A DNA stretch of 64,000 nucleotides from an uncultured Verrucomicrobiota bacterium (GCA_964431965.1 CAYSLU010000014.1:3700-67699); one strand, 5' to 3'. Shown: positions 35,698 through 53,004, counted from the stretch's first letter. Numbers and translations: made by a program. Notes: generated from the sequence alone by a model not told the origin.

Positions 35698-36840
35698 ATG
35701 AACCGAAGTTTCGCGATGGGACGGGTGGCCGCGCTGATCGCATCTCTGGCTACGTCGGTTCCGGCTGTCACCTTCACCCCTTTTACGCCGACGGGCGGCG
35801 GGGGCACGATCAACGGCCAGCAGCTCACGGTCGGCGCGGGCGGCACGGTCTACGAGTTGGACTCCTTCATCCACGTGCAAGGCTTCGATCTGAACGGGGC
35901 CGAGACCGGCACGTGCGGGCGGCTGACGGCCGACGCCATGCCGACCGGCCTGGTGTATCGGTTCGACGCGTGGCTGACCAACTCCGCCGGTCGGCTGGTG
36001 CTCTCGTATTGCATCTCGAACTCATCCGCATCGACCTTTCGCGATGTCCGGTTCTTCTCGTTTCTGGACCCGGAGATCGACCAGAACATCAACACGTTCT
36101 ACGACGAGTACGCGACGATGGCGGGTGCGCCGGGACAGGGCGACACGGACGCCGCGCCGGAGTACTGGCTGATCGACGAGCCGGGCTACTCGAGCGGGAC
36201 GATCGTGCAGGAGCTTCAGGTCGGCGTCTTGGGCAATGCGAACCGGGTTCCCCAGGGCCGGCCGAACGACGTGTCGATGGCGCTGGGCTTCCGGCTCGGC
36301 GACCTCAGCAACGGGCTGGCCCGCTGCGTGCGGATCATGATCGCCGAGGACGGCGGATCGACTGGCGCGGTCGTCCTGACGCAGCGCGACACGTCCACGA
36401 ACTCCACCACGGCCATCACGTACTCGGGCGAATCCGACTTTCGGGTTTCTGACGAGCCCGGGTGGGTGTTCACGAACGTCACGCCGCACGTGACGCTGAC
36501 GTGGGCGTGGCAGCTTGACCGCCAGACGGGGGCCTTGCGCGGATCGGCGACCGTGCGCCTGACCGACCCGCAGGTCCCTCGCGTGGGGGCGCCGTTCCAG
36601 TTCGGTCTTCACGGCGCCGGCCCCATCCATTTCCTGCAGAGTGACGGCACGCTGCCGGACGGGGATCCGTACGTCGACCGGACGTCCCCCATGCTGAACG
36701 CGCTCCGCCAGACCGGGAACCGGGACGACTACCTGGACCCGGGCGAGGACGTGACGGTTGGGCCGTTCGATGTCTTCACGCCGAATCGGGCGGCGCCTTC
36801 GCCCGGGCTCTTCCGGCTGTGGTCGATGCGGTATTTCTGA
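35698..36840 (+). CDS. Secreted hypothetical protein upstream of the giant Rhs gene
   Basis: ATG at 35698 follows AAGGAG. Signal peptide (MNRSFAMGRVAALIASLATSVPA). Codon usage is consistent with coding sequence. I recognise no domain. It ends 39 nt before the giant gene. Confidence 0.65.
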   Translation: MNRSFAMGRVAALIASLATSVPAVTFTPFTPTGGGGTINGQQLTVGAGGTVYELDSFIHVQGFDLNGAETGTCGRLTADAMPTGLVYRFDAWLTNSAGRLVLSYCISNSSASTFRDVRFFSFLDPEIDQNINTFYDEYATMAGAPGQGDTDAAPEYWLIDEPGYSSGTIVQELQVGVLGNANRVPQGRPNDVSMALGFRLGDLSNGLARCVRIMIAEDGGSTGAVVLTQRDTSTNSTTAITYSGESDFRVSDEPGWVFTNVTPHVTLTWAWQLDRQTGALRGSATVRLTDPQVPRVGAPFQFGLHGAGPIHFLQSDGTLPDGDPYVDRTSPMLNALRQTGNRDDYLDPGEDVTVGPFDVFTPNRAAPSPGLFRLWSMRYF

Positions 36841-36879
36841 AGCTGAACCGGGGCTGTGGGATCGGAAGGACGGTGTTCC

Positions 36880-51683: not shown

Positions 51684-51693
51684 TCCGGGCAGG

Positions 51694-53004
51694 TCAGAAC
51701 GCCCGCCCGGCGCGCAGGGACAGGGTCCAGCCGCTGGGATCGACCGATACGGTGTTCGGGCCGACCGTGACGTCCACGTCGTCCAGCAGCCAGTCGTAGC
51801 CGCCCTGCAGGCCGGCAAACCAGCCGGCTGCGATCTGCACGTCGGCGCCCATCGCCAGCCCGAGTCCCGCGAGCCAGGCCCCTTCGCGTTCGCTGTCGCG
51901 CCAGCTCTGGAGCGTCTGCGAGCTTCCGTCCGCATAGACGGCGGTGAAGGTCTCCAACCGGTCCACATCGACCTGCACATAGTTCAGCGACAGGGATGGG
52001 ATCGCAAAGAGCGCCAGCCGCTTGCCGAGCATGACGCTGGCCTTGGGGCCCACCCACAGGTCGTATAGCTCAGCGTCCACGTCGAACGCAATGCGGTTGA
52101 CCGCGCGCCAGTAGCTCGTGTGATCGATCCGCGTGCGGCGCGAACTGGCCGTCTGCCTCTGGCTGCCGACCACGTCGTGCCGGTAGCTCGACGGCACGTT
52201 CGGGATGACCGGGTCCTGGCCCTGCCCGCCGCCGGCGTATGTCCCGGAGTACGGAGCGGCCGGGGGCGTCATGCCCGTCGTGTCGAAGGTGGCGGTGTCC
52301 CGGTAGGTGTGCGTGTCGGTGTACGTAAAGGAGTCGTCCACCCGGATGCGGTCCACCCGGATCTGCTCCTCGTATGTCGACGCCTCCATGTGGCTGCCGG
52401 CACCCCAGATGGCATTGAGCCCGCCGCAGAGGCCGAGCTCGAATGCGTCGCGGGCCAGCAGCGTGCAGGACGCGGCAATCTCGATGCCCGCCCCGCTCAT
52501 GTCGTCGTCGAGGCGCACGGCGGAGTCGCGAAGCGTCGCCCGCATGAGTTCCTCGCCGTAGGACACGTCCGCGAGGCTCTGCACGTCGATGCCGGAGAAC
52601 TGCCGGTGGTAGCTCAGCGTGTCGGCGGCGGGATCGTACTGGCTGGCGTCCGTGTAACCCCAGTTCCACGTGAGGCCCGGAACCAGCGCGCTGGGATCGG
52701 CCGTTCCCGGGTCCATGAACACAAAGCCGTCGTCGTACGAGCGGTCTGCGTATCCGGTCAGGTCCGGAGTGCCCGCCGCGTAGCGGTAGGCCGGCCCCGA
52801 CGATCGCATGCCCGGCATGTACCGGTACGGGGCCGCGGCATGCACGCCCTGCGCCTGAACCCGCGAGGAGCCCCGGACATCCACATCCATCCCGAACCGG
52901 GTCGTCGGGCCGGCGCTGATCGACCATCCCCCGCCGGCCAGAGCCGTTCCACAGCACCAGCCCGCTGCCATCGCCCCCGCGAGAATCGCCGTCTGTCTGC
53001 GCAT
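51694..53004 (-). CDS. Putative outer-membrane beta-barrel protein
   Basis: ATG at 53004 follows GGGGGAGGA. Signal peptide (MRRQTAILAGAMAAGWCCGTALAGG). Alternating-polarity strands are rich in Gly, Tyr, Asp and Thr. The C-terminus ends ...WTLSLRAGRAF, with the terminal aromatic residue typical of barrel proteins. Confidence 0.6.
   Translation of the reverse strand: MRRQTAILAGAMAAGWCCGTALAGGGWSISAGPTTRFGMDVDVRGSSRVQAQGVHAAAPYRYMPGMRSSGPAYRYAAGTPDLTGYADRSYDDGFVFMDPGTADPSALVPGLTWNWGYTDASQYDPAADTLSYHRQFSGIDVQSLADVSYGEELMRATLRDSAVRLDDDMSGAGIEIAASCTLLARDAFELGLCGGLNAIWGAGSHMEASTYEEQIRVDRIRVDDSFTYTDTHTYRDTATFDTTGMTPPAAPYSGTYAGGGQGQDPVIPNVPSSYRHDVVGSQRQTASSRRTRIDHTSYWRAVNRIAFDVDAELYDLWVGPKASVMLGKRLALFAIPSLSLNYVQVDVDRLETFTAVYADGSSQTLQSWRDSEREGAWLAGLGLAMGADVQIAAGWFAGLQGGYDWLLDDVDVTVGPNTVSVDPSGWTLSLRAGRAF

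Follow-up and report, generated by a model that had tools for sequence, protein, structure and literature searches.

We analyzed a 64,000-nt stretch of DNA from an uncultured Verrucomicrobiota bacterium (GCA_964431965.1, CAYSLU010000014.1:3700-67699; hereafter, the window), focusing on a locus of three genes. The central gene encodes a 4914-aa protein with an adhesin-like stalk, an Rhs cage, and a C-terminal domain (CT) (36880..51624, + strand; hereafter, the giant). A gene for a 380-aa secreted protein (35698..36840, +) ends 39 nt upstream of the ATG of the giant, and the stop codon of a convergent gene for a 436-aa outer-membrane beta-barrel (51694..53004, -) lies 70 nt past the stop codon of the giant. 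The survey of the locus covered the 64-kb window.

A giant adhesin-Rhs protein and its two neighbors

The open reading frame (ORF) of the giant runs without interruption from a GTG at 36856 or an ATG at 36880 to 51624 on the + strand, i.e., over 4922 or 4914 codons (residue numbers given here are counted from the GTG; subtracting 8 converts them to ATG numbering). The GC content at third codon positions is 0.82-0.94 in all 100-codon blocks, the last 280 codons included, and this evenness gives no sign of a frame break, a chimera, a foreign patch, or a recently acquired tip. The 4914-aa product is present in a public protein collection (P0093), and its 90% cluster includes a 4915-aa ortholog from another sample (SRR27007078), whose contig (L110/L001) aligns gaplessly with the window over 11.1 kb at 85% nucleotide identity. 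The ortholog and the gapless alignment rule out an assembly or frameshift artefact, and the adhesin and Rhs parts are one protein. The initial annotation, made from the sequence alone, had described a single 4914-aa adhesin-Rhs fusion and had named an interrupted ORF as a finding that would overturn it; the fusion stands, with orthologs that agree in length to within 1 aa.

The domain content, all on the + strand, was established by Pfam and NCBIfam searches. A Sec-type signal peptide (36880..36966; aa 9-37), MKRKTARYG followed by a 19-residue hydrophobic core, is the top hydropathy peak of the giant (Kyte-Doolittle (KD) value of 2.63), and a homolog of the giant from a fermentation metagenome (L031) has a canonical signal peptide that ends in ARA before a V. 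A small N-terminal beta-domain, discussed below, is followed by an FG-GAP beta-propeller (37483..38355; aa ~210-500) with six to seven FG-GAP_3 units (FG-GAP_3, E = 1.7e-35 in six stretches; FG-GAP, four stretches). The stalk (38413..45705, to aa ~2950) consists of ~12 PKD/PKD_4 units together with He_PIG/Big_9/Cadherin_5, CARDB, and K319L-PKD domains. The Rhs cage begins with its N-terminal plug, DUF6531 (46303..46461; aa 3150-3202; PF20148, E = 9e-7), and continues with a shell of RHS/YD repeats (46603..50520; aa ~3250-4555; RHS_repeat and TIGR01643). With ~1300 aa and 16 stretches of RHS_repeat (PF05593, E = 4e-85), the shell is long enough to be closed. It is followed by the Rhs-associated core (50521..50772; aa 4556-4639; TIGR03696, 62-68 bits against a cut-off of 32.5), which carries both Asp-Pro motifs of the aspartyl autoprotease (…RFTQMDP…NGIDPGG), and the giant would be expected to cleave itself at its DPxG motif.

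These results bear out the proposed layout of signal peptide, propeller, Ig-like stalk, complete Rhs cage, and C-terminal domain. From the domain list of the initial annotation, the FG-GAP propeller, PKD units, cadherin-like domains, and CARDB were recovered, whereas Pfam or PDB sequence matches to FN3, a jelly-roll, or an alpha/alpha-toroid were not found. Two regions of the stalk (aa ~960-1130 and ~1390-1760) had no match in Pfam or PDB sequence searches and are left without assignment; the motifs DDGYW, GGGWRYGW, and SDGSW within aa ~1400-1750 are compatible with a toroid.

For the 380-aa protein (an exact match to P0001), the AlphaFold2 (AF2) model (predicted local distance difference test (pLDDT) score of 72) predicts two beta-sandwich domains behind a signal peptide. 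Only 11 homologs were detectable in 5.8 billion clusters. In a Foldseek search, the model resembled the N-terminal sandwich of GH94 phosphorylases only weakly and otherwise matched generic beta-sandwiches. The first domain is common to short PEP-CTERM-anchored proteins (P0006-P0011), and the second is specific to giant-associated copies. The protein may act as a surface co-factor, a chaperone, or an adaptor. Upstream of its gene lies a non-coding gap of ~700 nt (34996-35697) in a contig that is otherwise densely packed and of high GC content. A promoter and terminator scan gave one weak sigma-70-like match (35104-35133), and the gap is probably the regulatory region of the operon.

The 436-aa protein (P0096; MRRQTAILAGAMAAGWCCGTALAGG… to …LSLRAGRAF) has the features of an outer-membrane beta-barrel, i.e., a signal peptide, about 12-14 alternating-hydrophobic, amphipathic segments, and an aromatic C-terminal beta-signal (...LRAGRAF). 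It has no match in Pfam, and its profile gave no sequence match in the PDB. In its family, OMP_b-brl (PF13505) was matched by 3 of 14 members, and most of the 16 extracted ORFs end in …x(F/L), including all 13 homologs in one alignment (A4).

The three genes are kept together elsewhere. The locus with the 4915-aa ortholog (L110) has the same order as the window, i.e., the gene of the 380-aa protein, then the giant on the same strand, then the barrel in the opposite direction; there, a protein with 77% identity to the 380-aa protein (P0002) precedes the ortholog, and the convergent 435-aa gene product is 83% identical to the barrel. The upstream flank is unrelated to that of the window. In L031, the barrel, the 380-aa homolog, and the giant follow one another on one strand. 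The giant of L031 shares 43-53% identity with that of the window over the propeller and stalk, the 380-aa homolog 37%, and the barrel homolog 33%, with non-coding DNA upstream of the barrel. In a third arrangement (L008/L009 and L028), an Rhs gene with the same shell hairpin and CT family (see below) is followed by a same-strand barrel gene, which in L008 starts 18 nt past the Rhs stop codon. The retention of these gene sets in three lineages, with three orders and differing flanks, is good evidence of functional coupling. The co-occurrence of the 380-aa and barrel genes with related giants, put forward in the initial annotation as a check, was therefore seen, and the claim that the locus has no dedicated components does not stand.

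The shell hairpin and the C-terminal domain

The best PDB matches of the shell are the Rhs effectors of type VI secretion systems (T6SS), i.e., 7q97 (2e-40), 8h8a, and Tse5 (8cp6), and chains of bacterial teneurin-like proteins (TLPs) match it much more weakly (2e-14). Hydropathy at the level of a transmembrane (TM) helix was found in only four segments of the 4922 aa, i.e., the signal peptide, the first helix of the CT, aa 4313-4331, and aa 4365-4383. The latter two form part of a two-helix hydrophobic module (49756..50004, +; KD 1.8-2.0) that consists of the motif PPAWLAYRHW, TM1, an Arg-rich loop (net charge +7), and TM2, which ends in AFA followed by IPD. This hairpin is a ~110-aa insertion between YD repeats, located immediately upstream of the conserved final quarter of the shell, and has no family match in Pfam. 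Thirteen related Rhs proteins carry the module (besides the giant, carriers include P0012, P0013, P0020-22, P0027, P0030, P0032, P0033, P0044, P0045, and P0072) and is cleanly missing from P0016. Its parts recur in the same order, i.e., a "(G)LPSVWSRY"-like motif, helix 1, a basic loop, helix 2 ending in small-x-small, and "QYxxLSTxxW". The net charge of the loop ranges from +2 to +10 in the related proteins and is negative in none.

In Sec-dependent insertion, a hydrophobic helix can stop transfer and a later helix can re-initiate it in the manner of a signal peptide. The hairpin can be read in these terms as a stop-transfer helix, a cytoplasmic loop, and a re-initiating signal peptide that is possibly cleavable. 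The first half of the hairpin, with its layout of motif, helix, and basic cluster, looks like a sorting signal of the sortase or exosortase type. One of the carriers, P0013, which is of the same clade, is encoded by a gene split into several ORFs (L006:7931-12376 and L007:2749-7365) that adjoins a DDE transposase-associated gene and has the look of an Rhs locus that is decaying or has been rearranged.

The CT (50773..51621, +; aa 4640-4922; 283 aa) had no match in Pfam, NCBIfam, or a word-indexed search. An exhaustive HMMER search of 1.84 billion representatives detected 22 relatives (E from 4e-13 to 1e-3), and a profile search among Rhs matches added a further one (P0024). The relatives are restricted to Rhs tips and start right after DPxG wherever the preceding sequence is present. 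The uncharacterised family they form with the CT is conserved over its full length of 230-290 residues, usually with the ending …YxQLxP…V(P)F(R). One relative is carried by a second giant, of 3775 aa, with VWA, a DUF5122 propeller, cadherin-like domains, DUF6531, and RHS repeats. The CT is thus neither unique nor an orphan.

The invariant columns of the CT family are A, G, and Y only, and catalytic-type residues are not among the conserved positions. In the AF2 model (pLDDT 77, predicted TM-score 0.73), a 28-residue hydrophobic N-terminal helix is followed by long beta-strands around helices, which form a large beta-sheet. Foldseek found no meaningful match of this model among PDB folds (the best was the FMO protein, with a TM-score of 0.15). 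The only PDB matches of the family profile were the mosquito proteins SGS1 and SGS4 (8fjp and 9on3), which we did not take as evidence of CT homology because the match covers the Rhs core and low-complexity hydrophobic helices. The CTs of at least 40 relatives with the same core are mutually dissimilar past the first hydrophobic helix; across the wider Rhs clade the CTs differ, and nearly all open with a hydrophobic helix.

All four CT-bearing loci without a barrel (L026, L027, L108, and L109) have a gene for a small membrane protein next to the Rhs gene. These candidate immunity proteins, located downstream (L026:18408-19103; L027:2296-2811; L108:4365-4958 and 5116-5673; L109:7331-7840), have 169-231 aa and hydropathy peaks that fit 2-5 TM helices. 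The two copies in L108 are paralogs, and there is no homology between loci. An Imm32 gene is also located in L108 (5871-6182). No homologs of these proteins were found in the window, and neither end of the locus has a small ORF or a polytopic membrane protein nearby, in agreement with the initial annotation that an immunity component is lacking within the window. Because small membrane proteins follow the same CT family elsewhere, the CT is probably a membrane-acting toxin. This would agree by analogy with Tse5 and with the hydrophobic C-terminal domain (CTD) of a bacterial TLP, for which experiments showed membrane damage from the periplasmic side (PMC13018210).

A barrel family paired with large surface proteins

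Relatives of the barrel, at 21-29% identity, come mostly from genomes of the Planctomycetes-Verrucomicrobia-Chlamydiae (PVC) superphylum, i.e., Kiritimatiellae and Lentisphaerae metagenome-assembled genomes (MAGs) and many Verrucomicrobiota, among them Roseibacillus persicicus and an Akkermansia MAG, with one weak match in a Methylomirabilota MAG. Many soil, peat, and lake metagenomes also contain them. The distant homologs in named genomes do not adjoin Rhs genes, and the link to Rhs is therefore limited to the closest barrels.

To the family as a whole belongs another pairing. Of the 51 loci whose upstream sequence was long enough, 48 have an ORF in the same direction that ends ~20-30 nt before the barrel gene, against a background of 20% (79 of 387) for the genes in the same loci. 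The upstream ORFs range from 411 to more than 3295 aa, and those sampled encode surface proteins with Ig, HYR, DUF11, Ice_binding-like, or Big_9 domains and ordinary signal peptides. A conserved ~80-aa domain, "YxVQYSxDLxxW…QWxDxGPPKTxSxP…RFYRV", forms the C-terminal end of 48 of 57 barrel-upstream proteins and is in neither Pfam nor NCBIfam (hereafter, the tag); the barrel family, too, is missing from both databases. Examples of the module of a surface protein and a ~350-aa outer-membrane barrel are found in Roseibacillus persicicus (L012:244-11065), whose barrel adjoins a 3214-aa protein, in L041:4030-10870, and in L096:1723-10891, with ~45 more loci among L013-L106. The barrel family had no match to PorP_SprF (even at E ≤ 10), Omp85/POTRA, or DUF560, and the tag had none to any CTD model. 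The possibility that the barrel is an immunity protein was considered and rejected, as the family mostly pairs with non-toxin adhesins. In keyword searches of the literature, neither the barrel/tag pair nor the shell hairpin was found described, a result that does not prove that no description exists.

The small beta-domain of the giant (GVYLVQWSTNLTRWTNV...QAFYRTLRL; 37018..37185, +) is a candidate for a barrel-docking tag. It stands right after the signal peptide and is common to the giant, its ortholog, and the L031 homolog, in which it reads VVLVQSSANLEDW…RFFRAVQL. Alignment of this domain with the profile of the C-terminal tag (hhalign) gave a probability of 84% (E = 7.7e-6, 49 columns). 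A hidden Markov model of the C-terminal tag had no match at E ≤ 1 among the window ORFs, and it reached the N-terminus of the giant only when the search was restricted to three sequences. The "FEF.D…FFR" variant seen in the giant also occurs at the C-terminus of the protein encoded ahead of one of the closest barrels (L029). With moderate confidence, we infer that the N-terminal domain of the giant is a docking tag that resembles the barrel-associated C-terminal domain; its position at the N-terminus may be explained by the toxin, which occupies the C-terminus.

Candidate modes of delivery

According to Pfam, the 30 other ORFs of the window are housekeeping in nature (e.g., TPR proteins, ExbB/ExbD, transporters, an [FeFe]-hydrogenase cluster, ABC exporters, a photolyase, and a polysaccharide lyase), and none encodes PAAR, VgrG, Hcp, TpsB, LXG, WXG, TcA, or TcB. 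The absence from the window of genes for T6SS, two-partner secretion (TPS), type VII secretion (T7SS), and Tc toxins, as stated in the initial annotation, is thus confirmed, although genes of a T6SS or T2SS may lie elsewhere in the genome. The giant has no PAAR/prePAAR or VgrG-binding N-terminus, and the window has no vgrG, hcp, eag, or other T6SS gene. Neither a TPS/haemagglutination nor a FilH match was found in the giant, nor an Omp85-type POTRA match in the barrel, such as would be expected for type Vb secretion (T5b) and contact-dependent inhibition (CDI). In place of an LXG or WXG100 leader of T7SS substrates the giant has a signal peptide, and the SpvB, TcdB, and TcA families of Tc BC cages are absent from both the giant and the window. 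The features of Rhs/YD polymorphic toxins are present, i.e., closed-shell repeats, the DPxG core, the plug, and a CT that varies among relatives; an immunity gene directly downstream is not.

WapA of Bacillus subtilis is the studied monoderm example of a signal-peptide RHS toxin. Like WapA and the other toxins of this Sec or "T2SS" (type II secretion) class, the giant has a signal peptide, no PAAR, TPS, or LXG leader, an RHS shell, a DPxG core, and a variable C-terminal toxin. Unlike WapA, it has 4914 aa, a propeller and PKD stalk, a shell hairpin, and a diderm host, so that there is an outer membrane to cross, and its locus has a conserved outer-membrane protein and a beta-sandwich partner in place of an adjacent immunity gene. 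Signal-peptide RHS toxins are a listed class that includes Planctomycetes, Verrucomicrobia, and Lentisphaerae (Zhang et al. 2012, PMC3482391). More recently, Sec-exported, surface-displayed YD-shell toxins without known delivery machinery were reported (Raoelijaona et al. 2026, PMC13018210). These TLPs, from six phyla that do not include PVC phyla, are adhesin-bearing YD cages with polymorphic toxic CTDs, nearly all with an immunity gene directly downstream (PMC13018210). In view of the 2012 and 2026 reports, the proposal of an undescribed delivery mode was too strong as a category, and the suggested likeness to WapA and teneurin-type proteins is supported in layout.

The TLPs (PDB 9ifo and 9pt5), 96% of which have an N-terminal TIP domain, share with the giant a Sec signal, N-terminal adhesion modules, and a YD shell that cages a cleaved polymorphic CTD. 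Their superfold is made up of an FN-plug, an NHL domain, and a YD shell, whereas the plug of the giant is DUF6531 and Pfam found no NHL domain in the 200 aa before it; on this sequence basis, the giant does not have the teneurin superfold. The T6SS effectors RhsA (7q97), RhsP (8h8a), and Tse5 (8cp6) have the closest shell sequence and the same organization of plug, shell, and core. The CT of Tse5 is membrane-acting (pore-forming), and prePAAR effectors carry TM helices. In contrast to these effectors, the giant has no PAAR, VgrG, Eag chaperone, or T6SS gene in the 64 kb, and its TM helices are inside the shell and not N-terminal. SGS1 and SGS4 (8fjp and 9on3; PMC9935623) resemble the giant in their huge Rhs shell with a propeller, carbohydrate-binding domains, and hydrophobic helices after an aspartyl-protease site; the mosquito SGS1 differs in being eukaryotic, with receptor domains inserted in the shell and no signal peptide. 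Judged from its sequence, the giant is a Sec-dependent Rhs/YD surface toxin outside the teneurin superfold, closer to T6SS Rhs proteins but without any T6SS feature. What is new in this context is the conserved barrel and beta-sandwich partner, the tag-paired barrel family across PVC bacteria, the shell hairpin, and the uncatalogued CT family.

The closest parallel to the barrel loci in arrangement is the type-B CTD and PorP/SprF-like barrel of type IX secretion (T9SS), in which a large Sec-exported adhesin with a small terminal domain is followed by a ~350-aa outer-membrane barrel that binds and anchors it (SprB-SprF; PMC9143113). TPS (TpsA/TpsB) and type XI secretion (T11SS/Slam; PMC8406197) show a looser likeness in gene arrangement. 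The T9SS pairs differ from the barrel/tag pairs in that there is no detectable homology (the tag has no NCBIfam or Pfam match, such as would be expected for a TIGR04131-like type-B CTD) and in that T9SS is reported only from the Bacteroidota/Fibrobacteres-Chlorobi-Bacteroidetes (FCB) group; the giant further differs from T9SS cargo in its N-terminal tag-like domain. The tag/barrel pairs were seen in Verrucomicrobiota, Kiritimatiellota, and Lentisphaerota, with the one weak match in a Methylomirabilota MAG, and they may work like the type-B CTD/PorP pairs, to which they are unrelated in sequence. We tentatively suggest, while regarding it as somewhat more doubtful than the model of the locus that follows, that the barrel and the ~80-aa tag are an undescribed system of cargo tag and cognate barrel for large surface proteins, recruited here via an N-terminal tag for the display of an Rhs cage, together with a shell module that splits or tethers the cage during Sec export.

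For the locus itself, we give an even chance to a three-gene surface-toxin module, i.e., a barrel-docked, surface-displayed Rhs toxin of a PVC-type diderm. In this model, the giant would be exported by Sec via its N-terminal signal peptide, and the small N-terminal beta-domain would attach it to its cognate outer-membrane barrel, the product of the neighboring gene and a member of a family that presumably anchors or translocates large secreted surface proteins with a related C-terminal domain. The propeller and PKD/Ig stalk of ~3,000 residues would then hold the complete Rhs cage off the cell. The cage would enclose the self-cleaved 283-residue CT, which opens with a hydrophobic helix and would act on a membrane upon contact with a target. 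The 380-aa beta-sandwich protein, probably co-transcribed, could be an accessory surface or periplasmic factor.

Several observations weigh against such a module. The likeness of the N-terminal domain to the tag is weak by hmmsearch (~10 bits) and in pairwise tests (z of 2.3-2.7), and the barrel gene is convergent in the window, hence not co-transcribed with the giant. An immunity candidate left no trace at the window locus, at L028, or at L008. Between the two orthologs, the CT is the most conserved part (94.7%, vs 88-89% for the stalk; comparison with P0095), and between the orthologous loci the 380-aa protein is the least conserved (77-78%; window 35698-36840 vs P0002). Polymorphic toxins usually show the opposite pattern, and such conservation of the CT is unlike a diversifying toxin. 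The main obstacle to simple surface display is the hairpin, which with its Arg-rich loop has the appearance of a true membrane hairpin. Left uncleaved in a Sec substrate, such a hairpin should keep the cage in the inner membrane of the producer, which is at odds with free surface display. In SGS1, hydrophobic helices lie hidden in the shell lumen (PMC9935623); the hairpin may likewise be concealed in the lumen, or it may tether the cage or be excised.

Were the hairpin a permanent anchor, the giant would be an envelope-spanning machine fixed in the inner membrane, with the cage on the periplasmic face, the stalk across the periplasm, the N-terminal end in or through the barrel, and the toxin freed by triggered cleavage. 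The TM-grade hydropathy of the hairpin, its conserved flanks, and a loop that obeys the positive-inside rule in 13 of 13 cases all fit this arrangement, as does the linkage of the barrel to a giant whose tag-like domain is at the opposite (N-terminal) end. We consider it unlikely, however: we know of no Rhs protein that works like that, a cage that sits on the membrane of the producer itself is badly positioned to deliver a toxin, and the small-x-small end of TM2 is typical of signal-peptidase cleavage, which suggests processing over permanent anchoring. The small membrane proteins next to the CT genes in four of four other loci, a usual toxin-immunity signature, the Imm32 gene in L108, and the polymorphic CTs across the Rhs clade argue against a non-antibacterial function, to which we assign a slightly lower probability still. 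The giant would then be a teneurin- or SGS1-like adhesion or recognition protein, or an anti-eukaryote effector, whose caged CT enters a partner or host membrane and for which immunity is unneeded. This would suit the absence of an immunity gene and the strong purifying selection on the CT between orthologs; SGS1 also hides hydrophobic helices after the same cleavage site, and the giant is rich in carbohydrate- or protein-binding domains.

The view implied by the initial annotation, i.e., a free-standing Sec-secreted toxin with unrelated neighbors that crosses the outer membrane by T2SS, vesicles, or lysis, appears to us the least probable. It draws on the treatment of signal-peptide RHS toxins as default-pathway substrates (Zhang 2012, PMC3482391), on the convergent barrel in the window, and on a giant with the same CT and no barrel nearby (P0088). 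It is difficult to reconcile with three genes that stay together in three rearranged lineages with differing flanks, and with a barrel family that in 94% of its loci has a big surface protein as its partner.

The way in which Rhs and teneurin-like toxins exported by Sec cross the diderm outer membrane, or become attached to it, is an acknowledged gap (the delivery machinery is described as unknown; PMC13018210), and the locus, with a dedicated barrel and docking domain, is a concrete candidate to fill it. The secretion biology of the PVC superphylum is poorly known. Dozens of giant, unrelated surface proteins in these bacteria, including the cultivated Roseibacillus persicicus, come with a barrel of this family, which may therefore represent a general route of surface display. 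The shell hairpin and the new CT family, which probably acts on membranes, offer two more ways into the question of how Rhs cages and membranes interact.

Elsewhere in the window, a 482-aa predicted secreted protein without a Pfam or NCBIfam match is encoded two genes from the locus (54778-56226, -). At the other end (47-9478), 26 kb from the locus, ExbB/ExbD-type proton-channel genes come after the genes for three consecutive very large TPR proteins (1422, 612, and 736 aa), of which two have YfiO/BamD-like stretches; the group may be a cluster for envelope energising or assembly. The region at 19995-28001 encodes a Rex-like regulator, NuoE/NuoF-like subunits, an [FeFe]-hydrogenase, a second hydrogenase-like protein with PAS, and a SpoIIE/PP2C phosphatase; it resembles an electron-bifurcating hydrogenase together with a sensory one and points to an anaerobic lifestyle.

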